Shown piece by piece: positions 27,661 through 64,000 of a DNA stretch of 64,000 nucleotides (its first letter is position 1; the number at the start of each line of letters is the position of its first letter). The stretch is from Alphaproteobacteria bacterium (GTDB lineage: Bacteria; Pseudomonadota; Alphaproteobacteria; UBA828), in NCBI GenBank assembly GCA_965214705.1, contig OZ243972.1, positions 3,328,001-3,392,000 of the forward strand, written 5' to 3'. Both the position numbers and the translations under genes were made by a program. The notes below the pieces were generated by a model that worked only from the letters and a program-made list of their open reading frames with translations, made no database searches and had not been told where the DNA came from.

Positions 27661-27696
27661 ATGTACATCAAGGCAACCAGGACACACACCGACAAG
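27661..27696 (+). pseudogene. First 12 codons of an IS1634 transposase, split by the integrative element
   Basis: MYIKATRTHTDK continues in frame at 63610 through the shared CACACCGACAAG. Confidence 0.72.
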
Positions 27697-27817
27697 CGCA
27701 CCTTCGGTTCTAATGTACTGACATAGCGTTGCTTTTCCCTCCTGTTCTTGGCCGACAAGGGCGAATTCGATCGCCGTTTTCGCCCCGGCTGCAACAGGAA
27801 GTGCAGGAGGAGAATCC

Positions 27818-28939
27818 ATGGCAACGCTTCGTCTCCACCAAGGCCGCGTCGATGCGCTCAAGCCTCGTAAGTCTGCATACGACATCCGAGACCGGGAACT
27901 CAAGGGCTTCGGCGTCAGGGTTCTGCCCTCGGGCGCCAGGCGCTACTTCATCCATAGCCAGCACGATGGCCGACGGGTCTGGAAGATGCTCGGCAAGGGC
28001 GAGGCCATCGGCGTGGACGAGGCCCGCGAACGGGCCCAGGCCATACTGGCCTCAATACGGGCTGGAAACGACGACGAGACTGCGGCGGTGCCTGACACCC
28101 CGTTCGAGACAGTCGCCGACGAAGTCTTCCGCCGCTACGCCCGGAACTGGAAGCCGTCGACGCTCAAGGTCAACCAGGGCTACTACCGCAAGCAGATCCT
28201 GCCTTGGTTCGAGGGACGTCCGATCACCGGCATCACCGCCCGCGACGTTCAGCAGTGGTTCGCATCTCTCCACGAGACCCCCGTAGCTGCGGACCGCTCG
28301 GCCCCCGTCCTGTCCGTCATCATGCGCCAGGCCGAGGTCTACGGCTACCGGCCCGAGGGGACAAACCCTTGCGCGGGCATCAAGCGATACCGGCGCCAGG
28401 GGCGCGAGCGCTTCCTCTCGACGGCCGAAGTCAGCCGGCTGGGCTCGGTGCTGGCGAGCCATGAGGCGGGCCACCCGCAGGCTGTGGCGATCATTCGGCT
28501 GCTGCTGCTCACCGGATGCCGCAAGGGCGAGATCGTATCCTTGAAGTGGCGCGACTACCGCGAGGGCAAGCTGTTCCTCCCCGATAGCAAGGTCGGGCCG
28601 CGCACGGTCTGGCTCTCCTCCCCCGCGCGCGCCATCCTCGACGGCCTGCCTCGCACTGCCGTCTGGGTCTTCCCCTCGCCAAGGAACGGCCTCCTGCATG
28701 CAGCGTCGGTTGGCAGCGTCTGGCATCGTGTGAGGGAAGAAGCTGACCTGCACGATGTCCGCCTTCACGATCTCCGACATACGCATGCCAGCATCGCGCT
28801 GGCGCAGGGCGAGACGGTGCTGACCATCGGCCGGCTTCTCGGACACCGCAATCCGGCGACGACGCTGAAGTACATCCACCTGTCCGACGCCATGGTGCGC
28901 GAGGCGGTGGACGTTGTCGGCGCAGCCCTCGAGGGTTGA
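27818..28939 (+). CDS. Tyrosine recombinase A (arm-binding domain plus catalytic domain)
   Basis: RDRELKGFGVRV, TGCRKGE, HDLRH, LGH, LKY. Confidence 0.93.
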   Translation: MATLRLHQGRVDALKPRKSAYDIRDRELKGFGVRVLPSGARRYFIHSQHDGRRVWKMLGKGEAIGVDEARERAQAILASIRAGNDDETAAVPDTPFETVADEVFRRYARNWKPSTLKVNQGYYRKQILPWFEGRPITGITARDVQQWFASLHETPVAADRSAPVLSVIMRQAEVYGYRPEGTNPCAGIKRYRRQGRERFLSTAEVSRLGSVLASHEAGHPQAVAIIRLLLLTGCRKGEIVSLKWRDYREGKLFLPDSKVGPRTVWLSSPARAILDGLPRTAVWVFPSPRNGLLHAASVGSVWHRVREEADLHDVRLHDLRHTHASIALAQGETVLTIGRLLGHRNPATTLKYIHLSDAMVREAVDVVGAALEG

Positions 28940-28942
28940 TCC

Positions 28943-30085
28943 GTGGCCGTGAAGAGGAGGCGTCTGACTGACGCAAGTATCGCGAAGCTGACGCCGGCGG
29001 CCCGCGAGTATACCGTTTGGGACACGCGCCATGCGGGTCTCGGCGTTCGGGTGCGGCCGTCGGGGCACCGGGGCTTCGTATACTGGCGGAAGGGCGAGGA
29101 CAGTGCGCGCAGGATCACGCTCGGGCCTGCGTCGTTGATGAAGATCGAGGAGGCGCGCAGCCAGTGCGTCTCCATCGAGAGCGGCGCACGATCCGGCCAG
29201 GCGCGGCGCGACAAGGTGCCCACCTTCGAGGAATTTGTCGCGGGTCCGGGGCGGACGTGTTTCGAGCGGGGCAAGCCGTCGACGCGGAAAGTCTTTGCCA
29301 GGATCGTCTCCGTGCGACTGCTGCCCGCCTTCGGCTCGTTGCCGCTGGACCGGATCACCCGCGCCGATGTGACCCGCTGGTTCGACGAATGCAGCCGGAC
29401 CACGCCGGGCGCGGCCAACAAGGCGTTGAACCTGCTCAGCCGGGTTCTCAATCATGCGATCGTCTGCGGCCATATCCAGGCGAACCCCGCGCGTGGCATC
29501 AAGCGGAACCCCGGTGCCAAGCTCACCCGCTTCTTGTCGCGCGAGGAAGTCCGCCGACTTCATCACGCCCTGGATCGCCACGATCACGCGCGGCCGTCGC
29601 GCGCGCGACAGGCGGACGTCATCCGTCTTCTCTTGCTCACCGGCTGCCGGAAGAGCGAAATCCTGACTCTGCGCTGGCAGGACGTGGACGGGGACACGCT
29701 CAATCTGATCGATGCGAAGACCGGGCCGCGGCGGGTTTTTCTGAACGTGCAGGCTCGTGCCATTCTGGAGCGCCAGTCGCGCTCGGAGAGCGCCTACGTC
29801 TTCCCTGCGCCGTCGAACCCCGGTCGTCCTCTTTCGCATCACCTACCGCTCTGGCATTCTGTGCGAAGGGAAGCCGGGATCGAGGATGTGCGGATTCACG
29901 ACCTCAGACACACGTTCGCCAGCCATGCAGTCCTGCGAGGCATCCCGCTGCCGGTCGTCTCCCGCCTGCTTGGCCACAAGAGACCAAGCATGACACTGCG
30001 TTATGCCCACGTGGGTGATCGGGAAACCGAGGCAGCGGCCGAACGCATCGGTGCGGCCATCGCGCGGGCGTTGAGTGATCGGTAA
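28943..30085 (+). CDS. Tyrosine recombinase B (C-terminal tip replaced by an IS66 end)
   Basis: WDTRHAGLGVRV, TGCRKSE, HDLRH, LGH, LRY; the stop codon lies within GTAAGCG. Confidence 0.92.
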   Translation: MAVKRRRLTDASIAKLTPAAREYTVWDTRHAGLGVRVRPSGHRGFVYWRKGEDSARRITLGPASLMKIEEARSQCVSIESGARSGQARRDKVPTFEEFVAGPGRTCFERGKPSTRKVFARIVSVRLLPAFGSLPLDRITRADVTRWFDECSRTTPGAANKALNLLSRVLNHAIVCGHIQANPARGIKRNPGAKLTRFLSREEVRRLHHALDRHDHARPSRARQADVIRLLLLTGCRKSEILTLRWQDVDGDTLNLIDAKTGPRRVFLNVQARAILERQSRSESAYVFPAPSNPGRPLSHHLPLWHSVRREAGIEDVRIHDLRHTFASHAVLRGIPLPVVSRLLGHKRPSMTLRYAHVGDRETEAAAERIGAAIARALSDR

Positions 30086-30142
30086 GCGGTACGCGGACAC
30101 CATACCGGAATCTGGGTTGACTACGACGGGGACTTGTTGAGG
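30082..30142. mobile_element. Isolated IS66-family end remnant
   Basis: 61 bp with about 5 mismatches to the IS66 end at 39028 (GTAAGCGGTACGC..CCGGAATCTGG..). Confidence 0.8.
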
Positions 30143-30199
30143 CCAGCGCCGCAACGGTTAAGTTTGCGCCGATTTCCGGGCATTTTCACGGAAACAAGA

Positions 30200-30411
30200 G
30201 GCTCATTTCGTGAAACGTAGGCATCCCAGACTGTCGCCAGCAGCGGGGTACGCTTGTTTCGCGCCGGCAGGGGTTGAACCAACAGCTTTTTCGGGGCTTT
30301 ATGAGGCTTCCCATGCGTCGATCCAGGCAACCGCAGAGAAAGGCACCCATAAGCTAACCGCCCGTTATTACTGGATTTTTCCGTTCATGCCTACATTTCA
30401 CGAAATGAGCC
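30200..30411. mobile_element. 212-bp MITE (GGC ends, 8-bp TSD; IS1595-like)
   Basis: 25-bp TIRs GGCTCATTTCGTGAAACGTAGGCAT / ATGCCTACATTTCACGAAATGAGCC (1 mismatch); flanks AAACAAGA / AAACAAAA. Confidence 0.82.
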
Positions 30412-30418
30412 AAACAAA

Positions 30419-33400
30419 ATGGTGATGACGGCGGTTGAGGCGTATTTCGCCGATCTGCGGCGGGTGCGCGCATCGGGCGGGGCGACCGGGGAGCGGTCGC
30501 TCTACGCCCCGCTCGCGAACCTGTTGAACGCCGTCGGCGTGACGCTCAAGCCGAAAGTGTTCTGCGTCGGGGAACTCGCCGACCAAGGCGTCGGCCATCC
30601 CGATTTCGGCCTTTACGCAGCGAAACAGGTTCAGAAGGGCCGGCCGCGCGAGGGGCAGACGCCGGAGGGCGGCGTGGTTGAAGTCAAGGCTGCCGGAGAC
30701 GACGCCTGGCTCACGGCTTCGGGCGATCAGGTCAGCCGTTACTGGGGCCGCTATCGACTGGTGTTGGTGACCAACACACGCGACTTCGTGCTGGTAGGCG
30801 AGGATGCGGCGGGCCGCCCGGCGCGGCTGGAGACGTTCCGACTGGCGGACAGCGTGGACAGCTTCCACCGCAAGTTGGAGAAGCCTCGCGCGTTCGCCGG
30901 AGAAGTCGGCGCGGGTCTTGCCGAATATCTCGCCCGCGCGCTGTCGCATCGTGCGGCGCTTGCCGAGCCGAAGGACCTGGCGTGGCTGCTCGCCTCCTAC
31001 GCCCGCGACGGGCTCGCGCGTGTCGAGGCGGCGGGCGACGCGCCGCAGCTTGCGGCGGTGCGCAAGGCGCTCGAAGAAGCGCTCGGCGTCCGCTTCGAGG
31101 GCGAGCGGGGCGCGCGGTTCTTCCGCTCGACGCTGGTGCAGACGCTGTTCTACGGCGTCTTCTCCGCCTGGGTGTTGTGGGCGCGGCAACTGTCACCGCC
31201 GATGGACGCATTCGACTGGCGCACGGCGGTCTGGCATCTGCGCGCGCCGGTGCTACGGGCCTTGTTCCAGCAACTGTCCGATCCCGGACGATTGCAACCG
31301 CTCGGGCTGGTCGAAGTACTCGACTGGGCCTCCGCCGCACTCGACCGAGTGGACCGTGCCGCCTTCTTCGCTCGCTTCGCCGAGGGCGAGGCGGTGCCCT
31401 ACTTCTACGAGCCGTTTCTCGAAGCCTTCGACCCCGGCCTGCGCAAGCAGCTCGGGGTGTGGTACACGCCGACGGAAGTGGTCCGCTACATGGTCGCCCG
31501 CGTGGACCGTGCATTGAAAGATGACCTCGACATCGCCGACGGGCTGGCGGCAGAGAACGTCTACGTGCTCGATCCCTGCTGCGGGACCGGGGCCTATCTC
31601 GCCGAAGTGCTGCGCCGCATCGCCGCCAATCTCAAGGGCCGGGGCCTGGGCGCGCTCGCTGGGGCGCGGGTGAAGCAGGCGGCGACAGAACGCGTGTTCG
31701 GCTTCGAGATCATGCCCGCGCCTTTCGTGGTGGCGCATCTGCAAGTCGGGCTCACCATGCAGGACCTCGACACGCCGCTGGTCGATGATGGAGATGAACG
31801 TGCCGGCGTCTTCCTTACCAACGCGCTCACCGGCTGGGAGCCGCGCACAACCAAGCCGCTGCCCTTCCCCGAGCTTGAGCAGGAGCGCGACCGGGCGGAG
31901 CGAGTGAAGCAGGAGACGCCGGTCCTCGTGATCCTCGGCAACCCACCCTACAACGGCTTCGCCGGCATGGCGGTGGACGAGGAGCGAGAGCTGTCCGAAG
32001 CCTACCGTTCGACGAAGCGGGTGCGCCGTCCCGAGGGCCAGGGGCTGAACGATCTCTACGTGCGCTTCTTCCGCATGGCGGAGCGGCGCATCGCCGAGAA
32101 GACGGGCCGGGGCGTGGTCTGCTTCATCTCCAACTATTCCTGGCTCGACGGGCTGTCGTTCACGGGAATGCGCGAGCGTTACCTCGAAGCGTTCGACGCG
32201 GTGCGGATCGACTGTCTGAACGGCGACAAGTACAAGACCGGCAAGGTCGCGCCGGACGGCTCGCCGGATCCCAGCATCTTCTCGACCGAGGGCGATCCGG
32301 TGGGCATCCAGGTCGGCACCGCCATCGCAACCATGGTGCGCAAGGCCGATCACGCGCCAGGCCGGGCGGTCGGTTTCCGCCACCTGTGGGGACAGGCCAA
32401 GCCTGCCGAACTGACAGCGACGGCGGAAACGGAGCCGAGCGTGCTCTACGACACGATCGAGCCGGTGCTGCCGCTCGGCTTGCCGTTCGCGCGGACGGCG
32501 GTGAGCGAGAACTGGTTCGACTGGCCGGCCCTGCCCGATCTGTTTCCGGTGTCGTTTCCGGGGGTGAAGACCAGCCGCGACGGGTTTCTGGTCGATACCG
32601 ACCTCGACCGGCTCAAGAAGCGTATCGGTGACTACTTCGATCCGGCCTTGAACCACGAGGAAATCGCGCAGCGCTATCCGGGCGTCATGAAGACCACGGC
32701 ACGGTTCGATGCCCGTGCGGTGCGCGATGCGCTGCTCGCGCGTGGCGGGCCGGATGAGGCCGGGTTCTTCCGCTTCGCTTACCGGCCCTTCGACAACCGA
32801 TGGCTCTACTGGGAGGCGGATGGCGGGCTGCTTGATCGTCCGCGCGCCGACTACCGGCCGCACGTGTTCGAGGGGAATCTGTGGCTTGAGGCACGGGAAC
32901 GAGAAGCCAAGGAAGACTTTTCGCGTGGTACCGTGGTCCGGCATCTCGCTGATAACTTCGGTAACGGGCTGTCGAGTTTCTTTCCCACACGGCTCCGCGA
33001 CGACGGTCTTGGAAGCGATGGCGGCGGGGCGTACCGCGCCAATCTTTCGGGGTCGGCACGTCGCTACCTCGAACGCCTTGGACTCGGTGTCGAGGACCTG
33101 TTTCATCATGTCATTGCCGTCCTCCACGATACCGCTTATCGCGAGGACAATGCCGGGGCGCTGCGCATGGAGTGGCCGCGCATCCCGCTCCCAGCTTGGC
33201 CCGATGGTACCGACATTGGTGCGGTGGAAGCGCTCGCCGCGTCCGCCGCGCGCGGTCGCGAACTCGCGGCCCTGCTCGACTCCGAAACGCCGGTGCCGGG
33301 TCTCACCGAACCGCCCTTGCGTCCCGAGATCGCCGCCATCGCAGTCCCGGCCACCACCGACGGCCGCAACATGACCGGCGACGACTTCCTGGTGACGGCA

Positions 33401-33730
33401 GGTTGGGGCCACTTCGGGACAGGCGAGGCAGTGATGCCCGGCCAGGGCCGCGCCGTCGAACGCCCTTACACGCCGGATGAGCGCACCGCTCTGGGCGATG
33501 CCTTGACCGCGCTGGGCGGCGAAACCACCTTCGATGTGTACCTGAACGCCAACGCCTACTGGCGCAACGTCCCCGCCGCCGTCTGGACCTACAAGCTGGG
33601 CGGCTACCAAGTCCTCAAGAAATGGCTCTCTTACCGCGAACGCGCTATCCTCGGCCGCCCGCTGAAGCCCGAGGAAGTCCAGTACTTCGCCGAAACGGGG
33701 CGGCGTATCGCGTCGATCCTGCTGATGTAG
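30419..33730 (+). CDS. Single-chain REase-N6-adenine MTase with type ISP-like C-terminal specificity domain
   Basis: N-terminal PD..EVK nuclease motif, VLDPCCGTG (motif I), GNPPY (motif IV), YRPFD and KLGGYQVLKKWLSYR; no helicase motifs. Confidence 0.85.
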   Translation: MVMTAVEAYFADLRRVRASGGATGERSLYAPLANLLNAVGVTLKPKVFCVGELADQGVGHPDFGLYAAKQVQKGRPREGQTPEGGVVEVKAAGDDAWLTASGDQVSRYWGRYRLVLVTNTRDFVLVGEDAAGRPARLETFRLADSVDSFHRKLEKPRAFAGEVGAGLAEYLARALSHRAALAEPKDLAWLLASYARDGLARVEAAGDAPQLAAVRKALEEALGVRFEGERGARFFRSTLVQTLFYGVFSAWVLWARQLSPPMDAFDWRTAVWHLRAPVLRALFQQLSDPGRLQPLGLVEVLDWASAALDRVDRAAFFARFAEGEAVPYFYEPFLEAFDPGLRKQLGVWYTPTEVVRYMVARVDRALKDDLDIADGLAAENVYVLDPCCGTGAYLAEVLRRIAANLKGRGLGALAGARVKQAATERVFGFEIMPAPFVVAHLQVGLTMQDLDTPLVDDGDERAGVFLTNALTGWEPRTTKPLPFPELEQERDRAERVKQETPVLVILGNPPYNGFAGMAVDEERELSEAYRSTKRVRRPEGQGLNDLYVRFFRMAERRIAEKTGRGVVCFISNYSWLDGLSFTGMRERYLEAFDAVRIDCLNGDKYKTGKVAPDGSPDPSIFSTEGDPVGIQVGTAIATMVRKADHAPGRAVGFRHLWGQAKPAELTATAETEPSVLYDTIEPVLPLGLPFARTAVSENWFDWPALPDLFPVSFPGVKTSRDGFLVDTDLDRLKKRIGDYFDPALNHEEIAQRYPGVMKTTARFDARAVRDALLARGGPDEAGFFRFAYRPFDNRWLYWEADGGLLDRPRADYRPHVFEGNLWLEAREREAKEDFSRGTVVRHLADNFGNGLSSFFPTRLRDDGLGSDGGGAYRANLSGSARRYLERLGLGVEDLFHHVIAVLHDTAYREDNAGALRMEWPRIPLPAWPDGTDIGAVEALAASAARGRELAALLDSETPVPGLTEPPLRPEIAAIAVPATTDGRNMTGDDFLVTAGWGHFGTGEAVMPGQGRAVERPYTPDERTALGDALTALGGETTFDVYLNANAYWRNVPAAVWTYKLGGYQVLKKWLSYRERAILGRPLKPEEVQYFAETGRRIASILLM

Positions 33731-33745
33731 TCTAGGAAATCATCC

Positions 33746-34603
33746 GTGACTTTGAATAGATCAAAACAACACCACTACATTCCTGTAATGCTGATCAAAA
33801 ACTTCTGTGAGAACGGTCAAGTATGGGTGTGTCACAAGAATGAGAAGCGTATTTTCAAAGTATCGCCAAACAATATATTCAAAGAGAATAATTCATACGC
33901 CAGCTATGACCTAGATAATTTTCAAGTTAAATCTGACAAACACGAAGTAACTCTTTCAGGAATTGAAAGTGACGCTGCACCAGTTGTCCGGAAAATCATA
34001 GCGCATTCACGATGCAATGAACATCCCAAGCTCTCCTTGTCAGAGAGGCGTGTTTGGAAGGCGTTCTACTGCGCTTCCTGCCGGAGGACACCGGAGTTCG
34101 CGCGGAAATTGTTGAATCTTGATGGATTTGACGATGTCTTTCACTTGGTATGTGAGCAGTTGCTCCATCAGACTGGAATAGATTGCCCGGACAAAGAGGT
34201 TCTTGCACGGGAGGTCGCGCTCAGACCCGCAAAGGATGTTGTGAAGCAAAACACCAAGGCCCGCTTCGCCTCTGGAGATCATCCCCGCCTTAAAGCGCAC
34301 GTTGAGCGTTTCTCCCGTGAAACCGGCTTGATGATTTCTGTCATTCGCCGGCCAAACAGAAGCTTCGTTATTGGCAGCCATGGCATCTCCATCGTTCCAC
34401 GAGGCAAGGCGATTGGCGGTTGGCTTCCCATTGCGCATGATGTCGCAGTGACACCTACCGCGTATGCTGATAGGGAGATTCTACTTGCGCTAGATAACGA
34501 CCACGATCAAATCATTAGAGCGGTCAATAGAGCCTCCTTTCAGAGCTCCCAATTCGTCGCCGCAATATCCGAATCCTTGATCAGGTCACTTATGAATCGG
34601 TAA
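33746..34603 (+). CDS. DUF4238-like protein
   Basis: KQHHYIP..IKNF N-terminal motif and ..IESDAAPVVRKI; visibly lower GC than its neighbours. Confidence 0.75.
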   Translation: MTLNRSKQHHYIPVMLIKNFCENGQVWVCHKNEKRIFKVSPNNIFKENNSYASYDLDNFQVKSDKHEVTLSGIESDAAPVVRKIIAHSRCNEHPKLSLSERRVWKAFYCASCRRTPEFARKLLNLDGFDDVFHLVCEQLLHQTGIDCPDKEVLAREVALRPAKDVVKQNTKARFASGDHPRLKAHVERFSRETGLMISVIRRPNRSFVIGSHGISIVPRGKAIGGWLPIAHDVAVTPTAYADREILLALDNDHDQIIRAVNRASFQSSQFVAAISESLIRSLMNR

Positions 34604-34629
34604 CTGCGACAAAGACTCATTGGAAACGT

Positions 34630-34812
34630 CCGTACCCCGGCTTTCATCCCCTCCGCGATGATACATCCCACTCGCTCCGCCGCTTTCACGAGGTGGTCGT
34701 CGGCGAAATGGGCGTGGGCCGCCGTGGTCCGGTGCTGCCAATGCCCGTGCAGTTTACCGACCAAGGGGGAGATTTTCGCCGAACATCACGGCTTGGCTGG
34801 CCGCTGTGTGAC
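34630..34812 (-). pseudogene. C-terminal remnant of a tyrosine integrase
   Basis: HTAASQAVMFGENLPLVGKLHGHWQHRTTAAHAHFADDHLVKAAERVG; catalytic Tyr replaced by His. Confidence 0.7.
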
Positions 34813-34900
34813 GGTTGTCAGAGATGCCGGCCACGACATACTCACTCAAGGCGCACGCGTGACCTGCGAGGTGACGGAGGGACGGCGCGGTCGGTGGTGT
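34808..34900 (+). pseudogene. Remnant of the first cold-shock domain of a two-CSD gene
   Basis: VTVVRDAGHDILTQGARVTCEVTEGRRG; continues at 53549. Confidence 0.65.
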
Positions 34901-35260
34901 GCGAAGATCTTGAAACCGGCTTGGTGTGCTGAACGATCTGACTAGGGTTGCTCATTCTCCTGCATAAGAGACTATTATAACGTCATTTTATGCCTGTGGC
35001 AAGGATAATCGAAAGAGGCTAGTTCAGTGCATTAGGGAGTGTTTGAATGGTATCTTTAGTTGCATTCAGGGAAGTAGGATGTATATCTGCTGAATGATGC
35101 ATGAGCGGTGGTAGTCGGGTCAAACGGAGATCATGAGCGATCGTGGATCAAGGATAGCGAGAGAAGTCATTCGGGATATTGTAGGATCATAAATCAGTCT
35201 AGCACAGGATTATGATACCTTGTGTATTCGGCTTCGAGCATCGTCCGGGGGAGGTCTGCG

Positions 35261-35385
35261 ATGAGCGGGAATGCGAGCGGGCACCGTCAGCGAGCGGTGA
35301 TGGCGTCGGATACGGAGTGGGAGATAATCGGCCGGGTGGCGAAACGGCGCAGCATGGACCGCTCGCGCTACCTGACATGGCGGAA
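35261..35385 (+). pseudogene. Truncated RHH/MobC-like gene (copy A)
   Basis: HRQRAVMASDTEWEIIGRVAKRRSMDRSRYL, homologous to the copies at 49762 and 63215; fused by deletion to the traA remnant. Confidence 0.7.
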
Positions 35386-40823: not shown

Positions 40824-40916
40824 GGGCCACCCCTTAATCCGATTCGCCAATGCATGACCAGGGAAAAGTGCAGGCGGGACCGCGACCGAAATCTGCGGCC
40901 CCGCCTGCGTGCCGCC

Positions 40917-47933: not shown

Positions 47934-47975
47934 TGTGGGGTGCCGGATCGCTGGACACTTTACGGGCAATCCATT

Positions 47976-49938: not shown

Positions 49939-49974
49939 CCTCCAGCCCGCGGTGCCCCGGCTTGCCGCATTGCC

Positions 49975-52300: not shown

Positions 52301-52303
52301 GCG

Positions 52304-53428: not shown

Positions 53429-53557
53429 CGATTTTCCTCCTTCGCTCCGTTGCAGCCGGGGCAAAACGCAGGGCGATTCCGCGCTTTCCGGCCAATGCAG
53501 GAGGAAATAAGCAACGCTATGTCAGTATGTTAGCACCGCAGGTGCGCCCGGTGGTGT

Positions 53558-53816
53558 CTTCCATCTTGCCGTCGATGTCACGACCGCCATGGCCGATCCT
53601 GGGGGTGGCGCCGGGCCGGGGTATGAGCGGCGGGAGCGCGGCCGGAGCCGCGACGGGGCGGGCGGCGCGCTCGAAGAGTGTCGCGGCGTCGTGAAGTTCT
53701 ACAACGCGGCCAAGGGCTACGGCTTCGTGGTTCCCGACGGCGGCCGGGACGTGCTCGTGCACGAGAGCGTGCTGAACCGGGCGGGCCTGGAGCCGGGGCA
53801 GCGCGTGAGCGTCATG
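53558..53816 (+). pseudogene. Linker and second cold-shock domain of the split two-CSD gene
   Basis: AVDVTTAMAD..GVVKFYNAAKGYGFVVPDGGRDVLVH (RNP1/RNP2 motifs); truncated by IS ends. Confidence 0.8.
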
Positions 53817-53837
53817 CCCGAGTTTGACAGCATCTGG

Positions 53838-54622: not shown

Positions 54623-54625
54623 TAG

Positions 54626-56656
54626 CCCGACTTCCGCAACTCGGGGGTTATGAGGGTGCTAACCCATTGATTCTCCGTGATCGGACCCCCAAAGGTCGGC
54701 ACTACAGAGCGCCGAACGGAGGGGCGGTCCGTGCGCAGTCAGGCGGAGAACCGCGGCCCGGGCTGTTGCGGCAGGGTCATGCCGATACCCGGAACAAGTC
54801 CGGGCAGGTGCAGTAGAAGCTCGTGCTCCTTGTTCGGCCGGGTGTGGCGCGGCAGGATCAAGTGCCGGCCGTCGGTGGTCGGCAGGTGGACGTCCACCAT
54901 CTGGATGGTGGCGAACGCCTCGATGATGGCGCGGGGCGTCAGCCCGTTGGCGCGCGGGCGGGCGAGGTTCTTCAGCGTGACCAGCAGGCAGTAGGCAATG
55001 AAGGAGACGAAGATGTGCGCCTCGATCCGCTTCTCGCGCTGATGGAAGATGGGACGGATGGCGAGGTCGTGCTTGAGCTCCTTGAACGCCTGCTCGATCT
55101 CGATCAACTGCATGTACAGGTGCCAGAGCGTGGCGGGGTCTTCGGCGGTCATGTTGGATCGCAAGAGGTAGCGGCCCTCTCGGCGGCGCACGCGGCGTAG
55201 CCGGTCGCGCCGCAGGCGGAATGAGAAGCCGTCGGCGGCGAGTTCCTTGTCGGTCTCGGGCACGCGGATGCCGACCAGGTTCCAGGCCCGGCCCACCTCC
55301 TTCCTGGCGGCGCCGAGCTTGAGCATCAGTTGATCTCGGCTGTTGGACTGCCCTTGCAGCTCGCGCAACCGGTGCCACAGCTTCTTGAGCCGCCGCCGAC
55401 GCATGCCGCGTTCCTTCAGCTGCCGCCCCTCGCTGCGCACCAGGACGTAGAGTTCGCCGTCTTCGACCAGCAGCTTGACGTTCACGGACTGGCGCACCTC
55501 CTGCCAGGGCAGATCCAGGAATGCCTTCTCCAGCCGCGTCAGCCGCCCCTTCGGCGTGCCCACCAGATAGCGCACCGGCGCCTCACCCGCGCGCATTGCC
55601 GCCAGCGTCTCCTCGGTAGGGATGCCACGGTCCATGATCCAGATCCGGTCGGAGCGGCCGTATTGCCGTTCGATCTTCTCGAGGAACCCCGCCAGCGTGG
55701 TCTGGTCGGCGGTATTCCCCGGCATCACCTCGTAGGCCAGCGGGAAGCCCTCGGGCGTCACGATCAGCGCGATCACCACCTGCACGCAGTCAGGCCGCTT
55801 GTCCCGGCTGTAGCCGAAGCGGCGCTTGTCCTCGAACGGCGGGTCGCTCTCGAAGTACGTGCTGGTCAGATCATACAGCAGGACATCGAAGCGCGCGTCG
55901 AACAGCGCCGCCCAGCGGCCGCGCAGGAACGAGAAGAAGTCCTGCTTGTGCTCCAGCAGCTTGTCGAGGCAGCGATACAGTGTGTCGTCGGCGACCGCCC
56001 GGTCGCTGCCCAGCAGATCGCGCAACGCGCTGTGCTCGTACCAGTGACGGTGAAGACGCCACTCGCTGCCCGGATCGATCAGCCGGTAGCAGGCCTGGAT
56101 CTTCAGGATGTCCAGCCACCTCGTGCCTTGCCGGCTCGGCGGCAGGCGCGGACCCCAGAAGCGGTCCAGATCAAGACGGTCCCACAACGCCAAGGCCAGC
56201 CAGCACGCCCCCCACTGGCGCGGGTCGTGAAGCGCCACCTCCGAGACGTTGATCTTGACCACTTCGCAGTTCAGCGCCGGCGCCTCCCGATCCTCGGGAA
56301 AGAGCGCCATCTGACGCGACCCCGACTTGCCCTCCACCACCTCGATCGAGCGGCACCACGCCGCGCGCTGATTGTCGTTGATCTCGCCGAGATAGAGAAC
56401 GTGGCGCTGAACGACCCGGCCGCCGCGGACCCGGACGTTCTCCACCACGCTCCAGTAGCGGTGCTCCTTGCCGTCTTTGAAGCGTCTCTTGCAGCGCACG
56501 AACATGGTCGAATCGTCCGCCGCCGCGGCACCCCGATCAAGGGGGTAGGTCGGCACTACACGCGGTTCTGGAAGGGCAAAGCCCGGAAATCCGCCACTTT
56601 CCGGGCCGAAAAACCGTCAAATTGGCCGAATCGCGTGCCGAGTTGCGGAAGTCGGG
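54626..56656 (-). mobile_element. IS1634-family element
   Basis: 19-bp perfect TIR CCCGACTTCCGCAACTCGG; no matching TSD. Confidence 0.9.
54739..56505 (-). CDS. IS1634 transposase
   Basis: MFVRCKRRFKDGKEHRYWSVVE, YDLTSTYFE, GYSRDKRPD, MDRG, IEQAFKELK. Confidence 0.92.
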   Translation of the reverse strand: MFVRCKRRFKDGKEHRYWSVVENVRVRGGRVVQRHVLYLGEINDNQRAAWCRSIEVVEGKSGSRQMALFPEDREAPALNCEVVKINVSEVALHDPRQWGACWLALALWDRLDLDRFWGPRLPPSRQGTRWLDILKIQACYRLIDPGSEWRLHRHWYEHSALRDLLGSDRAVADDTLYRCLDKLLEHKQDFFSFLRGRWAALFDARFDVLLYDLTSTYFESDPPFEDKRRFGYSRDKRPDCVQVVIALIVTPEGFPLAYEVMPGNTADQTTLAGFLEKIERQYGRSDRIWIMDRGIPTEETLAAMRAGEAPVRYLVGTPKGRLTRLEKAFLDLPWQEVRQSVNVKLLVEDGELYVLVRSEGRQLKERGMRRRRLKKLWHRLRELQGQSNSRDQLMLKLGAARKEVGRAWNLVGIRVPETDKELAADGFSFRLRRDRLRRVRRREGRYLLRSNMTAEDPATLWHLYMQLIEIEQAFKELKHDLAIRPIFHQREKRIEAHIFVSFIAYCLLVTLKNLARPRANGLTPRAIIEAFATIQMVDVHLPTTDGRHLILPRHTRPNKEHELLLHLPGLVPGIGMTLPQQPGPRFSA

Positions 56657-56912
56657 ATAGGGCGGTTTTCGGCCGACAATCCCACGATCACGCGGCAGCG
56701 GAGGGGCCCCCCGACTGCCGGCCGGGCACCGCCTCCGCCGGATAGACCGCCCCCACCCCGGTACGGGTCGACCGGAAGCGCGAGCCCGGCGCTCGCCGCC
56801 CTCACGGACGCACGGGCGACGGCACGGGCTACCGCCAAGCCGATGTCGCGGATATGATCGCCTGCCGGTGCCGCCCAGCGCTCCGGCTACCCTGACCATC
56901 GAGCAAGCGGGC

Positions 56913-59648
56913 ATGGCGTCGAGGAAGCACAGCCGCAAGGGGCGCAGGCGCAAGCGGCCTGGCAAGGTCACCGCCGTCCAGCAGCTGAATCAGGCCCGTC
57001 GGCGGCTGGCCAGCGGGGACGCCCGCGGCGCCCTCGATCTCCTGAAGCGGGTGCCGGACGGGGAGCACGACCCGGCAGGCAAGGCGTGCCTGCATTTCTG
57101 CGCTCTGACGCAGCGGGCCCGTCAACTGGCACGGCGGGGCCAGAAGAAGGAGGCGGCCGCCATGCGCGCGCGGGCCGCCGAGCAGCGGTCATCCATCCCT
57201 GCCGGGGCGCTGGGGGAGGAGGACCTGATGAGCTACCTCCGCCATCTTGATCCTGGCGAGGCGGTCGCAACCTACGCGGGATACATGAAGGAGAGATCGC
57301 CGATCGCCGGGGCTGAGCGCCTGCTCGCCGACAGGCTAGTGACCCGGCGGTGCTGGGCGAGTCTGGACGCGCTCGACGCGAGCCATGCGCTTCGCCGCGA
57401 CGCGGACCACGTCATGCGCGGCCTCGACGCGATGGACGCGGGAGAGTGGGAGCGTGCGGCGGATCTGCTGCGCGGGCTGCACCGGCGCTCGCCGTTCGCG
57501 GCCTGGCGCGTGTTCTGCAAGGCGATGGCGTGTTTCGGTGCCGGCGACGACGAGGGCCTGCGCCGTGCGGCGGACCTTCTGCCCGGGGAGTTCGCGCTTG
57601 CCGGCATCGTCGCCGAGTTGCGGCGGGCTGGCGGGGGCGGGGGCAAGGGCGGCTCTTCCAGGGTTCAGCGGGCCCTGGGAACGGACGGCGCGACGGTCTC
57701 GGAGCTGGGCGAGGAGTTGCGCCAGGCTCTTCGCAGGAACGAGCGCGAGCGGGTCATCGAGCGACTGATGAGCCGCCTGGCCGATGCACTCAGCCCCGAC
57801 GATCCCCTGCCGGCGCTTGTCGATCTGGTGCAGATTGCGGGCTTGGCCACCGCGCGCAGCCACCTCTCCATGGGCGCAGTGGAGCGGCTGGCACAGCACC
57901 TTCTGCCGGCCAGGCGGGTTCCGGGCCTGATCTCCAGGATCGGGTTGGTTCTTCAGCAGGCCTCCCTGGGCGCATGGAACCCCGGTGCGGCGGGATCCCT
58001 GCTGGGCCGCCTTCGCGAGGAGTTCCCCCGGTCCGGGGATCATGGTCTGGTTCGGGGCCGCGTATACGAGGCGCTGGCGAGGATCGGACATCGGAGCGTG
58101 CAGCCGGAGCTGCTGCCGGCCCCGAAGGTGCGGGAGCTGATCCTGCTTCTCGATGGGCGGTCCTTCGAGGCCGGGACGGTGTTTGCCGATCTGATGCAGG
58201 AGAGCCTGCTGGCCGATCCCGGCAACCGCGACGGCTATCGCTTCCTGGCGGAGCTGTTGCGGGGCCGCAGGCAGGACAGGAACCGTCTGCGGCGGGTGCT
58301 GGAGGACACGGCGTCCCGATTTCCCGAGGATGCTGAGCCCTGGCTTGAGTTGACCGAGCTTCACTACGCCGGCAATGCGTACCGGCGGGCGGAGGAGGCT
58401 CTTGCCGAGGCCCGGCGGCGCGCTCCGCATGACGAGCGCATCGTCGGCCTGCAGGCGGTGGGCTTCCTCAAGTCATCGGACCAGAGCCGCAAGAGCGGAC
58501 GGTTCGAGCTGGCGGCCCGGGATTTGCAGCGGGCCGAGGCGCTGGGGGGCTCCCGGCTGACAGACATCGTGCCGGTGAAGAGGCTTCTGCTGGACCTGGT
58601 GTCGTCGGGCGGGGATGCCGCCGCGGTCGTGGTTCCCCGTCTTTCCGCCCTGCCTCCTGCCGGGCAGATCAGGACCCTGGCGCTGCTGCTTCACGAGCTG
58701 GAAGCGAACAGCACCGTCAGGAACGTCACGCCCGAGATGACGCATGCCGTGCGAGGCCTTCTGGCTCTCAGGGCGCCCATGATCGATGACATCGATGGGG
58801 AGGAGGCGGCCGGTCTTCTGGCTCCCCTCCCAGGGGATTTTCGGATCCTCTATGGCCGCCTTCATGTCGCGCCGGTCCTGGCCGACTTCTGGGGCGCGAT
58901 CATGCGCGGGCAGCGGGACGACGGTCTGCTGGATGTCTTCGACATTCTGCTGGACTGCGGCGGCCGGGCTGCCGTGCGGGCCGAGATCGGGCTTCGCCTA
59001 GCCGGAACGAGCAAGGCGGAGCGGGATCCGTTGCTGCTCCTGTACCTTGCGGCGATCCGCTACCAGGAAGGCGACGACGACGATTCCCGGCGCTTCTTTG
59101 AGGCGCTGGAATCGGCAGCCCCGTCCGAGCGCGAGCGCCTGCGGGTGGGAGCCGGGCGGCTTGCCCGGGTCAGCGCGGGCATCCTGCGCGAAGCGCTTCA
59201 CACGTTCGACTTCGGGCTTCTGGACCCGCCCGAGCCGCTGTTCGGGGGCGACGCTCCGGGACCGCTCTCGAGCCTTCTGGACGAGATCCTGGGACCCGAG
59301 GAAGAGCCGTCCGGAGAAGAACCGTCTCTCGACGCGTTCCTGGATGCTCTGAGGGTCGGCCTGCAGGCGGGATTGCCGGGCCAGCCCTGCCAGACCTCGT
59401 TGTTCGACGACGACGAGGCGGCACGTGAGCTGGAGACGCTGGAAGGCTTGATCGACCGGCACTGGCTTCGCGGGGTTCCCTCTCCGCTGCTGAGGGAGGT
59501 GGCGGAGGTGGCGAGAGCGGAGCCTGGGATTCGGCACAACCTGGACCGCAGCGCCCGCACGTGCGAGGAGTCGGGGCTTCGCGACGGGCTGAGCCGGGAG
59601 GCGCGTATCTTCCTCTTTCCCCGCAAGCAGGGTCGCCGGAGGGCGTAG
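56913..59648 (+). CDS. Large helical/TPR-like repeat protein
   Basis: About 911 aa, Ala/Leu/Arg-rich helices; TPR-like RFPEDAEPWLEL..AEEALAEARRRAPHD; basic N-terminus; first gene of the operon. Confidence 0.7.
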   Translation: MASRKHSRKGRRRKRPGKVTAVQQLNQARRRLASGDARGALDLLKRVPDGEHDPAGKACLHFCALTQRARQLARRGQKKEAAAMRARAAEQRSSIPAGALGEEDLMSYLRHLDPGEAVATYAGYMKERSPIAGAERLLADRLVTRRCWASLDALDASHALRRDADHVMRGLDAMDAGEWERAADLLRGLHRRSPFAAWRVFCKAMACFGAGDDEGLRRAADLLPGEFALAGIVAELRRAGGGGGKGGSSRVQRALGTDGATVSELGEELRQALRRNERERVIERLMSRLADALSPDDPLPALVDLVQIAGLATARSHLSMGAVERLAQHLLPARRVPGLISRIGLVLQQASLGAWNPGAAGSLLGRLREEFPRSGDHGLVRGRVYEALARIGHRSVQPELLPAPKVRELILLLDGRSFEAGTVFADLMQESLLADPGNRDGYRFLAELLRGRRQDRNRLRRVLEDTASRFPEDAEPWLELTELHYAGNAYRRAEEALAEARRRAPHDERIVGLQAVGFLKSSDQSRKSGRFELAARDLQRAEALGGSRLTDIVPVKRLLLDLVSSGGDAAAVVVPRLSALPPAGQIRTLALLLHELEANSTVRNVTPEMTHAVRGLLALRAPMIDDIDGEEAAGLLAPLPGDFRILYGRLHVAPVLADFWGAIMRGQRDDGLLDVFDILLDCGGRAAVRAEIGLRLAGTSKAERDPLLLLYLAAIRYQEGDDDDSRRFFEALESAAPSERERLRVGAGRLARVSAGILREALHTFDFGLLDPPEPLFGGDAPGPLSSLLDEILGPEEEPSGEEPSLDAFLDALRVGLQAGLPGQPCQTSLFDDDEAARELETLEGLIDRHWLRGVPSPLLREVAEVARAEPGIRHNLDRSARTCEESGLRDGLSREARIFLFPRKQGRRRA

Positions 59649-59651
59649 GCG

Positions 59652-59957
59652 ATGCTGGCTCACTATCTTGCTCTGGGGCTTTCCCCCTCCGCCTCGCGGG
59701 AGGAGGTTCGCCGGCGCTACCTCGAGCTGATCCGGGCGCATCCGCCGAGCCGGGAGCCGGCGTACAGCGAGCGGATCGTGGCCGCCTACGAAGCCCTGAA
59801 GGACGATCGCTCGCGCGTGGAGACGGCGATGTTCGGGATGTCCCGGCATGGCGATTTCGAGCTGGCTCTGGACGCGCTGGTGCAGGCGCGGCCGCGCGGG
59901 CGTGCCACCCCGGGCCTGCAGGCGCTGATTGCGGCGGAAGGCGCAGAGGATGAGTGA
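59652..59957 (+). CDS. Small J-domain-like protein (HPP instead of HPD)
   Basis: HYLALGLSPSASREEVRRRYLELIRAHPP..IVAAYEALKD. Confidence 0.85.
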   Translation: MLAHYLALGLSPSASREEVRRRYLELIRAHPPSREPAYSERIVAAYEALKDDRSRVETAMFGMSRHGDFELALDALVQARPRGRATPGLQALIAAEGAEDE

Positions 59958-60617
59958 GCCTGACGGCGACTGGAAGCGCCGCGCCCTTGAGGATTTCGGG
60001 CACTGGCTCGACGAACTGGAGGAGGAGGACAGCGGCGACGGCGGGACCGGTATAGCGCCGGAGCCAGATTTGCGCGACTTGTTCGCCGAGCTTGCGGCGC
60101 TGCGCCAGGAGGTCCGGCTGCAAAACCGCGAGCAGTCGAAGGCGGGCCGGGAGCTTGCCCAGGCGGCGGCACGCTACGACGGCGCTGCGGCGTTGATGAA
60201 GCGCCGCGAGGACGATCTTGCGGCATTCGAGACGCGGGTCTCGCGCGAGGCCGAGAACCGCTGCCTGCGCTCTGTTCTCGAGGTGCGCGATGCCCTGGTC
60301 CGGGGCTTGGAGGCAGGGACGGCGCTGCGCGAACGCCCCGGCTTGTTCCGCCGCCCGCCGCGGGGTATGCGCGGCGTCGCCGAGGGCTACGAGATCGCAC
60401 TCAGGCGTTTCGACCGGATGCTGTCCGGGTTCGGGGTCGAGCGCCTGCGGACCGCAGGCCAGCCGTTCGATGCGCGCACCATGCACGCGGCGGAGGTCCG
60501 CCGGGTCGCGGGGGTCGGGAGCGGCATGGTGGTCGAGGAGCTGCTCAGCGGCTACACCCGGGGCGGCGACATTCTGCGCCTCGCCGAGGTGGCCGTGAAC
60601 CGCAACGAGAGGCAGGA

Positions 60618-60621
<4 letters not shown>
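59950..60621 (+). CDS. grpE: GrpE-like nucleotide exchange factor
   Basis: Coiled coil, then GQPFDARTMHAA, VVEELLSGY, LRLAEVAV. Confidence 0.87.
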
Positions 60622-62396
<1,775 letters not shown>

Positions 62397-62400
62397 GCCG

Positions 62401-62760
62401 GTGCTCCGCTGCCCGACCTGCGGCGCCGGGGGGATCGAGGGCCCGACATGCCACCGCTGCCGGACCGACCTGCGCCAGGTGCTGGCCGTCGAGCGGGCCG
62501 CTGCGCAGTGCCGGCGGCGGGCGGCGGCCGCGCTGGCAAGCGGCTGCGGCGACCGGGCGCGCGCCCTTGCGGACAGGGCCTGCGCACTCCACCGCTGCCA
62601 TGCGTCCGTTTCCCTGCGCGCCGCGGCCGCGCTCGTCGATGGCGAGTTCGGCTTGGCCCTCCGTCTGTGGCGGGAGGTCCGAAGCGGGCCGCCGGACAAC
62701 CCCGCTCCGGCGAACGCACGCGCTTCTATCGCTCCCTCGCCCGCCGTTCCACGAAACTGA
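62401..62760 (+). CDS. Zn-ribbon (CxxC..CxxC) plus TPR-like small protein
   Basis: RCPTCGAGGIEGPTCHRCRTDL followed by Ala-rich helices; starts 4 bp after the Hsp70 stop. Confidence 0.72.
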   Translation: MLRCPTCGAGGIEGPTCHRCRTDLRQVLAVERAAAQCRRRAAAALASGCGDRARALADRACALHRCHASVSLRAAAALVDGEFGLALRLWREVRSGPPDNPAPANARASIAPSPAVPRN

Positions 62761-62816
62761 GTGCCGCGCAGGCGATGAGTCCGGAGCGGGATACCCCCTC
62801 CCGCGATGCGGCTTCG

Positions 62817-63215
62817 TCAATGATCGCAAGCAGGCGCGATGGCACCGAGAGCTGCCCAGCGCGTGGGACGGCTCACCGATCCCTTGCTCCGAAGGGCGTA
62901 TACGAGAGGCGATCGTGCGCTCGGCCGCGAGAGGGCATCCTCCCAGGCATCGACGGCATCGCCAAGCGCGTTCCAGCGCTCCTCCAGCCCCATGTCGGCC
63001 ATGCGCTGTTGCTCGATCCTGGCGAGCAGCAGAAGCTCGCGCACCGTGCGGCGCAGAACGCTATCCGGCAGCGGGTCCGGCGCGCTCGCCCTGTGCACGA
63101 TGTAGCGCGAGAGATCCATGCCCGCGTCGGCAGCGAGTTCGCGAATGCGCGCCCATTCGCTTGCTGTCGTCATCACCGCGTGCTGTGTGCGGCGCTCCGT
63201 CGGCCGGCGGCTCAT
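62817..63215 (-). CDS. RHH/MobC-like DNA-binding protein (longest copy, C)
   Basis: TQHAVMTTASEWARIRELAADAGMDLSRYIVHRA fits a beta-helix-helix pattern; two paralogs in the window. Confidence 0.72.
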   Translation of the reverse strand: MSRRPTERRTQHAVMTTASEWARIRELAADAGMDLSRYIVHRASAPDPLPDSVLRRTVRELLLLARIEQQRMADMGLEERWNALGDAVDAWEDALSRPSARSPLVYALRSKGSVSRPTRWAALGAIAPACDH

Positions 63216-63597
63216 GAGGGCACCCCGGGGACGGTGCAATACTGCGTGACCAACCTCGAAGGACCCGCGTGCGTGCCGCAACTACCTACATAACACCATA
63301 TAATACAGTTACGACTTGCCCATCCGCATACGTCATGAGAACCCACCGCCTTACGCCCTCTAGGAACGCGAATATCCATCGTGTGTTTCTCCGCACAGAC
63401 AGACTCGCAACCACTGACATATGCCTTCACTTCCCAGATTGCAACTGATCGGTTCGCGGCGCAAAATTTTATATCAGATAAAAGCCGCCACAATCCTCTT
63501 GTGAAACGACCCAATCACCTGTAATATACTACATATGCAGGAGAGAAAGCGACCCACTCCACTACCTGACATACCCCAACAATATCAAGTTTAGGAC

Positions 63598-64000
63598 CAC
63601 ACCGACAAGGCCGGCCAGCCGGTCCGAAGCCATCGCCTCGTGCTCGCCCAGCGCGTCGGCGACAAGGTGCGCCACAGGACGCTGCTCAATCTCGGCACCG
63701 ACTATCCGGTGCCGCGCGAGAAGTGGAAGGCCGTCACCGAACTCGCCGAGGCGCTGCTTCACGGCAAGCCGCCGCTGTTCGAGGGCGAGGCGGATGTGCG
63801 GGCCGCAGCCGAGGACATCGTCGCCAAGCTCAGGGCCAGGGGGTTCCGCGTCGAGGCGATGCAGGAAGAGGCGCGCAAGCCCGACATCGCCACCGTCGAC
63901 CTCGATACCCTGGAGCACGAGAACCCGCGCACGGTCGGCTGCGAGCGCCTGTGCCTCAAGGCCCTCGACGCCCTCGGCTTCGCCGAAATCCTCCACGGCC
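63598..64000 (+). pseudogene. Body of the IS1634 transposase lacking its start (runs off the window)
   Basis: HRLVLAQRVGDKVRHRTLLNLG..TVDLDTLEHENPRTVGCERL; frame open to the window end; its start codon lies at 27661. Confidence 0.82.

Follow-up and report, generated by a model that had tools for sequence, protein, structure and literature searches.

We analyzed a 64,000-nucleotide window of the 7.9-Mb genome G000, which is assembled in three contigs (C1 to C3; the window is C1:3328001-3392000). Window positions 27697-63597 most probably represent one copy of a multicopy family of integrative mobilizable elements (IMEs), with the anatomy and mode of insertion proposed here. In its complete form, an element of this family carries at its left end the motif CGCACCT.CGGT.CTAA, a subterminal repeat and two translationally close, paralogous arm-type tyrosine integrases, Int1 followed by Int2, and then variable cargo. 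Its right end holds an inward-pointing ribbon-helix-helix (RHH) gene, a small open reading frame (ORF), a MobF relaxase-helicase and a noncoding module with the inverted partner of the subterminal repeat.

Boundaries, ends and genes of the element family

The island is bounded by a direct repeat, CACACCGACAAG; its two copies at 27685-27696 and 63598-63609, both on the + strand, are the only ones in the window. The same 12-mer was matched in none of 100 dinucleotide-preserving shuffles of the window. Comparison of the junction stretches with the whole genome by blastn revealed about 40 uninterrupted copies of one insertion sequence (IS), at 99.5-100% identity; in these intact copies, the alignment of the left stretch stops at window base 27696, and that of the right stretch begins at 63593. 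In a three-way alignment, the 12-mer was single in the intact copy L013 and single at each window junction. The lengths of the two IS pieces, less one repeat, give 259 + 1914 - 12 = 2161 bp, and intact copies measure 2161-2163 bp. The intact transposase begins MYIKATRTHTDKAGQPVRSH..., and that of L013 was assigned to the IS1634 family (NCBIfam NF033559, 257.5 bits against a cutoff of 100). Since about 40 intact copies hold the 12-mer once, both flanking pieces belong to one IS. This bears out the first-pass annotation of this DNA, which took the pieces for one interrupted IS1634, proposed a search for uninterrupted copies and described an integrative element, bounded by the repeat, whose excision would rebuild the transposase gene. 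Indeed, removal of 27697-63608 would restore that gene.

The 5' part of the interrupted IS (27438-27696, + strand) comprises its left end and codons 1-12 of the transposase gene (start at 27662); about 37 genome copies match this part up to 27696, at 98.5-100% identity. The 3' part (63610-64000, +) continues the gene, which runs about 1.5 kb beyond the window end, and the insertion point corresponds to codons 8-12. The left copy of the repeat can be parsed into C, the conserved ACACC, a variable five-base stretch (N5, here GACAA) and G; the right copy was located by occurrence search. We read the leading C as the end of the right terminus, a base also present in the IS, and the trailing G as an apparent chance match with the first purine of the element. 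The repeat load of G000 is very high: in addition to the target IS, with its about 40 copies, we observed a variant 94% identical to it in more than 20 copies, IS66 elements in about 30 and several other families in 20-90 copies.

The left end (27697-27817, +) starts CGCACCTTCGGTTCTAA and has the consensus CGCACCT.CGGT.CTAA, which includes the palindromic GCACC-TNC-GGTGC; further in, at about 27718-27744, is a subterminal inverted repeat (CTGACATAGCGTTGCTTTTCCCTCCTG). The right end is formed by a noncoding module of about 320 bp (63282-63597, +), with the inverted-repeat partner at about 63538-63555 (CAGGAGAGAAAGCGACCC) and the terminus ...TTTAGGAC. This module is conserved at 12 further places in the genome, at 68-93% identity. 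The left subterminal repeat has an inverted copy 40-60 bp inside the right end, and the left and right repeats co-vary between subfamilies (CTGACATAGCGTTGC...CCTCCTG with CAGGAGG...GCAACCCTGCGTCAG, and CTGATTCGATTGCAATGGTCTTCC with GGAAAACCATCGCATATCGTGTCAG). These repeats may be arm-type sites for the N-terminal domains of the integrases. The right-end module is a candidate location for attR arm sites, an origin of transfer (oriT) and a promoter, with the putative oriT suggested by the gene order in sibling elements. Two right junctions elsewhere carry tandem units. At C1:360400-360470, the right junction of element E6, the core ACACCACCCGCG is followed directly outside the right end by a tandem 12-mer, GACACCACCCGC, in at least 6 copies; at C3:2760600-2760700, the right end of the element at C3:2722266 runs into tandem CATGTTTTGTCT units ending TGTC|ACACC, which may be reiterated terminal motifs.

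We then looked at how often these ends recur. When the terminal 134 bp on the left and 148 bp on the right of the element were used as blast queries, the genome yielded 35 left and 13 right ends. With a regular expression for the left end alone, 38 sites were found, all starting CGCACCT.CGGT.CTAA, and blast queries made of the terminal 90 bp from each of twelve different right ends raised the number of right ends to 32. Matches to Int1 were present in each of the 18 congeneric genomes searched (4 to 57 per genome), and, of 10 loci taken from other species of the genus, 9 showed the same left end behind ACACC. Of 401 genomes sampled evenly across the class, three contained the exact left-end pattern (33 sites in G000, 10 in G323 and 1 in G029), and the reversed pattern, used as a control, gave 0 sites. 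A pattern scan of species genomes yielded at least 33 left-end sites with an ACACC or CTGA context among the 102 stretches listed; as a 15-base pattern was sought in 596 Gb, most of the listed stretches are estimated to be chance matches, and the 33 sites, having been selected by context, do not give a frequency. The left-end sites among the matches listed come from Paracoccaceae, Rhodobacteraceae, Defluviicoccus, Rhodospirillales and alphaproteobacterial metagenome-assembled genomes.

Inside the left end lie two adjacent genes for arm-type tyrosine recombinases. The first, int1 (27818-28939, +; 373 aa), matched Pfam Phage_integrase (1e-16), Arm-DNA-bind_3 (8e-9) and Phage_int_SAM_3, and its PDB matches were a P2-like integrase and XerD. 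The second, int2 (28943-30085, +; 380 aa), starts 3 nt after the int1 stop and has the same three domains (Arm-DNA-bind_3, Phage_int_SAM_3 and Phage_integrase). The two proteins are 38% identical over their full length, and the NCBIfam XerC and XerD models gave them 57-70 bits against cutoffs of 330-335. By tblastn, the genome holds about 40 int1-int2 pairs, one clade being 72-100% identical to the window proteins and another 54-62%. In all 34 pairs examined there were two integrase genes, not three; the order was always int1 then int2, and the gap was 3 nt in 32 of them. The catalytic residues (R, K, H-x-x-R, H and Y) were complete in 35/35 Int1 and 34/35 Int2 proteins when a Shewanella pair was included with the 34. 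In a quick tree, all Int1 sequences split from all Int2 sequences with a support of 99.8. We take the two genes to be an old duplication that has been retained together, and not chance neighbors from two elements. The first-pass annotation had noticed two adjacent integrases with arm-binding domains and full catalytic sets, and the domain hits and the 34 pairs confirm them as a conserved, functional-looking pair. We also noted a third kind of adjacent pair, at about 20 loci in G000 (for example, C1:469820-472184, C1:1821911-1824183 and C2:33008-35311), in which both genes are best matched by Int1 at 37-41%; these may represent a further two-integrase family with other ends.

Outside the genus, both integrases were of full length and in the same order at 15 of the 27 external alphaproteobacterial loci among the matches listed; at the remaining 12, the second gene is incomplete or the sequence breaks off. 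On plasmids, 18 records contained distant relatives only, all below 60% identity. The megaplasmid of Shewanella oneidensis MR-1 has an Int1-like gene (42%) immediately before an Int2-like gene (40%). These two genes (positions 5830-8498) overlap by 4 bp; an ACACC stands 167 bp upstream, followed by CCCCAAGGG in place of the alphaproteobacterial left-end motif, and no relaxase was found within 5 kb downstream of the pair.

At the opposite end, an RHH-like gene (62817-63281, -; likely start ATG at 63215) points inward, the listed ORF being conserved among right ends over residues 1-113 only. The gene gave 30 tblastn hits in the genome. Four RHH paralogues scored 21.6-24.2 bits with the Pfam NikA-like model, all below its cutoff of 27. 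An AlphaFold2 model built from an alignment of 15 paralogues contained helices only (pLDDT 81.6); its best local Foldseek match, below significance, was the N-terminal fragment of NikA (2ba3; 29 columns, root mean square deviation of 0.7), and phmmer of the RHH protein against PDB sequences returned nothing at E <= 1.

The context of this gene became apparent from siblings. In an ORF clustering of twelve repeat-bounded elements, the integrases were present in 12/12 and the RHH gene in 8/12, and a further protein family, common to 6/12, joined a 727-aa fragment of the window with relaxase-helicases of about 1600-1800 aa (1592-1813 aa). The two smallest of the clustered elements, E7 (C2:554447-569962, 15.5 kb) and E8 (13.9 kb), have the same order from the right end inward: a NikA-like RHH gene, a small ORF and a relaxase-helicase of 1598 aa (E7) or 1592 aa (E8). 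The E7 protein contains a TrwC relaxase domain (Pfam, 4.5e-75) and an AAA_30 helicase and was scored as MobF by NCBIfam (257.8 bits against a cutoff of 100). No gene for a type IV secretion system or a coupling protein was found among the called ORFs of E7 and E8. As E7 and E8 carry a relaxase-helicase module, scored as MobF in E7, the family appears to be integrative and mobilizable. In the window, the corresponding 727-aa gene (35212-37395, +) retains the helicase part only (AAA_30, 2.5e-43; NCBIfam TraA_Ti, 3.4e-63, model positions 331-516 only).

The first-pass annotation had proposed to test whether the same end motifs and a distal RHH gene recur with homologous integrase pairs, and they do (the genome holds 38 left and 32 right ends). 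It had described the conserved noncoding module and the inward RHH gene as such; both recur, and what had gone unread is that they appear to be part of a conjugative mobilization module. We considered an excisionase role for the RHH gene. A relaxosome role is favored by the sibling order of RHH gene, small ORF and relaxase, and both roles may apply. No excisionase gene was recognized among the element's genes in the domain scans of the window proteins.

Target site and proposed mode of insertion

The flanks of the 38 left ends have a common motif. At positions -11 to -7, ACACC was present in 35/38, ACACG in 2/38 and neither in 1/38. The five bases that follow (N5, n1 to n5) recur at the right junction. 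For each left end, the downstream right ends on the same strand were listed, and 24 left-right pairs were examined: N5 was identical in 12, differed at one base in 8 and at two bases in 4. All 8 single differences fell at n1 or n2. A ninth, found in another species (G005:C4, TACAT versus AACAT), was also at n1, and the chance of 9/9 single differences at these two positions, if differences were evenly spread, is (2/5)^9, about 3e-4. In G004, G005 and G323, strict right-end patterns gave 4 R2-type and 0 R1-type right ends (R1 to R4 being our right-end types), and the mismatch rule was replicated outside the genome only once. The base after N5 at the left junction is G or A and need not match that at the right junction; therefore, the identity ends at n5.

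Two targets could be compared in their intact state, the multicopy repeat GATGTCGAACACCACCCTGCGGTTGC and the paralogue of the E7 target, and in both the ten core bases were single before insertion. E7 itself is flanked on both sides by CGCCAGGTGT, and the paralogous stretch at C2:~488224 has CGCCATGTGT once, that is, an empty site. Three closely related left ends (93-97% nucleotide identity) were located at the same position of three IS copies, and right junctions of three types occur at this same IS site: R1 in the window, R4 at C1:597586 and an R2-like one at C3:1420737. Another multicopy repeat, ...AATACACCTTAACTCAGCCGCC, was hit at least four times. Because related left ends share one position in three IS copies, the site is chosen by sequence and is not random. 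The earlier description of the insertion as one of low specificity thus does not hold, given the ACACC at a fixed distance in 35/38, the N5 shared with the right junction and the one IS site used three times. We also observed that, in run X7, contigs of another organism match from 27686 (ACACCGACAAG) behind a different flank (...GCGATCAACT), which would place the same 10-base core outside an IS.

The mismatch pattern suggests an 8-bp overlap, ACC-n1n2-n3n4n5, in which the outer triplets would have to match and the central two bases would be free. Around ACC-N5, the termini form imperfect inverted repeats, with (T)AGGACCAC or TAGTGCAC on the right and RCGCACCT (reverse complement, AGGTGCGY) on the left. 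We propose that integration would proceed by conservative site-specific recombination of the joined ends with a target made of ACACC and five bases. The core would consist of two half-sites, (T)AG(G/T)(A/G)C(C)AC and RCGCACCT, which are imperfect inverted repeats and flank the 8-bp overlap; the fixed ACC and n3-n5 would have to match between element and target, n1n2 would not, and a mismatch at n1n2 would leave attL different from attR. In a model borrowed from XerC/XerD, Int1 and Int2 would act as a hetero-oligomer, each binding one half-site and exchanging one strand pair. The element would then carry part of its own address, and a multicopy IS with that address would offer repeated landing sites, permitting multiplication within the genome. 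The fullest version of this proposal is a widespread alphaproteobacterial MobF family with a two-subunit Int1/Int2 recombinase, whose proteins fix only ACACC while n3-n5 are read by base pairing and the central two bases are free; we advance it tentatively, as a possibility that falls short of an expectation. Alternatively, the overlap may be of 6 or 7 bp, with homology required on the right side only.

A number of observations weigh against the reading of the island as one IME copy inserted in this way. Of the left ends, 14/38 have no assigned right end, and the 4 two-mismatch pairs, which include element B (a copy nested in the window, described below), include differences at n3 or n5; these could be chance pairings (about 10% each). 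The overlap length and the assignment of half-sites to proteins are deduced from sequence patterns. No circular form, empty-site read or transfer was observed, the data being assembled contigs, and present-day activity is thus putative. The window copy lacks a relaxase domain in the Pfam and NCBIfam scans. Its RHH label is supported by a Pfam NikA-like score of 21.6 bits (2.4e-4), below the cutoff of 27; Foldseek with the RHH model gave no match at E <= 0.001, and the C terminus of the ORF is not conserved. Finally, the window joins a left end of clade 1 to an R1 right end, and the other R1 pairs belong to clade 2 (6/8) or are unclassed (1/8), so that the window copy could be a hybrid after tandem insertion and not a unit that moved.

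Such a hybrid would arise if two members had entered the same IS site in turn and an internal deletion or rearrangement had then removed one end of each, so that a left end from one member now faces a right end from its partner. Among the 8 R1 pairs, clade 1 is represented by the window alone, the same IS site bears right ends of the three types named above (R1, R4 and R2-like), a lone right-end remnant and a second copy in inverted orientation lie in the interior, and a tandem insertion would give the same perfect repeat. In contrast, left clades and right types are mixed over the 24 pairs, and the combination is not abnormal in this respect: clade 1 was paired with R2 seven times, with R4 twice and with R1 once (the window); clade 2 with R1 six times and with R2 five times; and clade 3 with R3 twice, the left end of the remaining pair, with an R1 right end, being placed in no clade by the script. 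Moreover, no remnant of a clade-2 integrase was detected inside the window by tblastn, and the nested copy is inverted, which directional accretion at the core does not yield. We consider a hybrid origin unlikely and lean toward a single family member, but either history may apply.

Slightly less likely still is the idea that Int1 and Int2 do not act together, one being the integrase and the other having a relaxase-like, resolvase-like or directionality role or being a nested passenger. A tyrosine recombinase is used as a relaxase by plasmid pCW3, as mentioned in PMC5704250, and no excisionase gene was recognized in the element by the domain scans. Against this, the order of the genes and their 3-nt gap (32/34 pairs) are fixed, and the catalytic residues and the arm-binding domain are kept in both proteins. 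The Int1 and Int2 clades are each other's closest relatives and have been kept from Alpha- to Gammaproteobacteria, as a passenger would not be, and the complete siblings already have a canonical MobF relaxase. A target-site duplication left by a nonconservative, transposase-like or replicative insertion is very improbable: ten bases, five of them variable between sites, do stand on both sides of at least 12 elements, and the ends do have transposon-like inverted repeats, but the conserved gene set has no transposase other than those of nested IS, ACACC at 35/38 sites fits a recombination core and not a staggered cut at arbitrary sequence, and the single differences are confined to n1/n2 (9/9), as a heteroduplex in the middle of the overlap leaves them, whereas a filled-in duplication would be identical.

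Interior of the window copy

The content of the island was determined from Pfam, PADLOC and NCBIfam scans. Past the integrases, a 70-bp remnant of an IS66 terminus (30082-30151) has about 42 copies in the genome and is 90% identical to 39028-39095, the end of an IS66 copy. It is followed by a cargo gene for a type IIG restriction enzyme-methyltransferase of 1103 aa (30419-33730, +; PADLOC REase_MTase_IIG, 1.1e-85; Pfam Type_ISP_C, 2e-36, and N6_Mtase) and by a second cargo gene, found by Pfam scan, for a DUF4238 protein (33746-34603, +). Downstream of the relaxase fragment, a DruA-like/DDE_Tnp_1_assoc ORF (38050-39066, +) is cut by an IS66 insertion at 39019; an uninterrupted version is present at C3:2073056-2074902.

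Three IS follow. The first is an IS66-family IS (39019-41778, -; Pfam DDE_Tnp_IS66 and TnpB_IS66), the second an IS66-related IS of the DUF6444 type (41927-43600, -) and the third another IS66-family copy (44040-46806, +), inverted and 99.8% identical to 39027-41789. Assembled (Logan) contigs of public runs were aligned with window positions 26001-46000. Contigs of three other runs join 39018 to 41779, and contigs of three runs also join 41926 to 43601; because these contigs join across, the IS at 39019-41778 and 41927-43600 are late arrivals. At 27696 the public-run contigs showed loose ends of the intact IS, as expected from its about 40 copies. Over 39019-46806 as a whole, the inverted IS66 pair flanks the IS66-related IS and pieces of the DruA-like gene, and of these three IS, two are absent from contigs of other runs.

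A zone of repeat fragments separates the IS66 cluster from a second integrase pair. A solitary R1-type right-end remnant was found by right-end blast at 48814-48885 (-; C1:3376814). The second pair belongs to element B, an inverted 4.1-kb copy of the family (49404-53546, -) recognized by right-end, left-end and domain matches, with both integrases and both ends. It consists of an R2-type right end (49404-49470, -; right-end blast), an RHH fragment (49783-49908, +; tblastn), an Exo_endo_phos gene (49975-50847; Pfam scan), int2 (51140-52300, -) and int1 (52304-53464, -), both from domain scan and tblastn, and a left end matching the pattern (53465-53546, -). Its junction cores, ACACC-ACCGG and ACACC-ATCGC, differ by two bases; its integrase region shares 97.6% identity with that of the element at C2:610228-640507, and its flanks are not contiguous parts of one target.

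Further to the right are a gene for a cold-shock-domain protein (53589-53936, +; Pfam scan) and a different IS1634-family IS (54623-56659, -; transposase 54739-56556; NF033559, 2.5e-90), which has 99% identical copies elsewhere in the genome. The last cargo is a four-gene block (56822-62944, +) present three times in the genome at 97% identity. According to the domain scan it encodes a TPR protein of 926 aa (56868-59648, +), a J-domain protein (59652-59957, +), a GrpE-like protein (59929-60621, +) and an Hsp70/DnaK-like protein (60618-62396, +), and PADLOC gave no hit above noise for this block. Its other copies, C1:2968941-2975060 and C3:1312034-1317803, adjoin an unrelated integrase (26% to Int2).

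The 35.9-kb island, bounded by ends of the family, is thus a composite and not a clean single copy, with four IS, a right-end remnant and an inverted 4.1-kb copy inside it. The window copy is old and decayed, its relaxase being reduced to a helicase fragment and its interior holding nested IS, a remnant and a mini-copy. As both ends and both integrases are intact and the repeat is perfect, excision may still be possible; transfer, if it occurs at all, would take place only with a relaxase in trans.

Relation to known elements

Prokaryotic transposons with tyrosine recombinases are grouped in PMC10214605 as integrative and conjugative elements (ICEs) and IMEs, SEs, GInts, RITs and relatives of Tn554. 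Among IMEs, PMC5704250 describes a "Tyr duo" class, formed by MTnPi1, MTnPi2 and MTnPi3 of Prevotella intermedia, which target TTAC NNNNN AA; in PMC4755523, which also mentions Tn1806, the MTnPi elements are amplified in the genome and have two tandem integrase genes without significant mutual homology. The layout of our family thus has a precedent, since such IMEs are known in P. intermedia. The family has the two tandem tyrosine recombinase genes of a "Tyr duo" IME, and it has the integrases of its own and the att repeats of an IME (the 12-bp repeat, the intact empty sites and the E7 empty site). It resembles MTnPi further in combining tandem tyrosine recombinases with a relaxase, in having several near-identical copies per genome and flanking att repeats (PMC4755523, PMC5704250), and in a target made of a short fixed motif and five free bases (PMC5704250). 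MTnPi as there described differs in its Bacteroidota host, a primase-family gene, a different relaxase and AT-rich targets. Common descent appears unlikely, because the MTnPi integrases, compared here by their description, are mutually unrelated and Int1 and Int2 are 38% identical.

SEs, as far as their published outline goes, share with our family two catalytic tyrosine recombinases at the left end, imperfect terminal inverted repeats, a short spacer by the end motif that travels between sites, and few selected sites per genome. They differ in their core, intA-tfp-intB with srap: there is no tfp between the integrases of our family and no srap beside them, the next conserved genes being those of the opposite end. 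SEs combine one ordinary and one large integrase, whereas both are of about 375 aa here; they are reported to be nonmobilizable and confined to Gammaproteobacteria; and their 6 bp at attL and attR differ by origin (fingerprint and footprint), whereas 12/24 of our pairs are identical over N5. Tn554 has a 630-aa TnpB plus TnpC. In the outline of that transposon (tnpA, tnpB and tnpC, with no flanking repeat), it likewise differs from our family, in which both integrases are of about 375 aa, there is no third small gene and a repeat is present. With Tn554, RITs and GInts, our family shares more than one tyrosine recombinase encoded together at one element end; RITs as outlined in PMC10214605 have three recombinases in a row and GInts four genes (ginA-D), and neither set is present here. 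None of these three has a MobF relaxase module at the far end. The first-pass annotation was thus right that the layout matches neither RIT, Tn554 nor SE, as none of these gene sets is found; the layout nevertheless has a precedent in the "Tyr duo" IMEs.

Lambda Int and the P4/SXT-type integrases have an arm-binding N-terminal domain, attP arm sites on both sides of the core and a weakly conserved attB. In the strand-swapping model for lambda Int, three bases are tested on each side of the overlap, and IntDOT of CTnDOT and Tn916 tolerate heterology; in CTnDOT, part of the overlap may differ. The overlap proposed for our family follows both of these, lambda Int and CTnDOT. These classical arm-type systems use one integrase and a tRNA or unique gene as a target, whereas our family has two integrases, a 5-bp motif with a carried address and a high copy number. 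XerC and XerD are two paralogous tyrosine recombinases, each binding one half-site and exchanging one strand pair; unlike Int1 and Int2, they have no arm-binding domains and are chromosomal housekeeping genes acting at dif. In the full texts searched, we found no family in which paralogous arm-type integrases, a MobF module and an ACACC core occur together in an alphaproteobacterial host.

What is new here is an IME variant that combines tandem paralogous tyrosine integrases with a MobF relaxase, the tyrosine-duo layout itself being already known. No canonical IME known to the 2017 review PMC5704250 encoded a MobF relaxase, and our family would join two traits called unusual for IMEs, the tandem tyrosine integrases and that relaxase. 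If the proposal is true, this is an undescribed and abundant mobile family, with 38 left ends in 7.9 Mb, a presence in 18/18 genomes of the genus and a scattered one in Alphaproteobacteria, and an integrase pair reaching Shewanella. The family moves restriction-modification and other cargo and inactivates IS copies. Its left-end motif together with ACACC gives exact boundaries for islands that are hard to delimit in annotation. The tolerated repeat differences amount to a testable rule of target choice, which could aid the design of integrases addressed by few DNA bases. If the address is indeed read by base pairing, the target would be reprogrammable by the DNA of the element; this would explain the transposon-like behavior of the family, with its dozens of copies, its preferential colonization of IS and the free reassortment of its integrase and mobilization modules, and the family would be a natural system in which strand-swapping homology sensing is visible in genome sequence alone.

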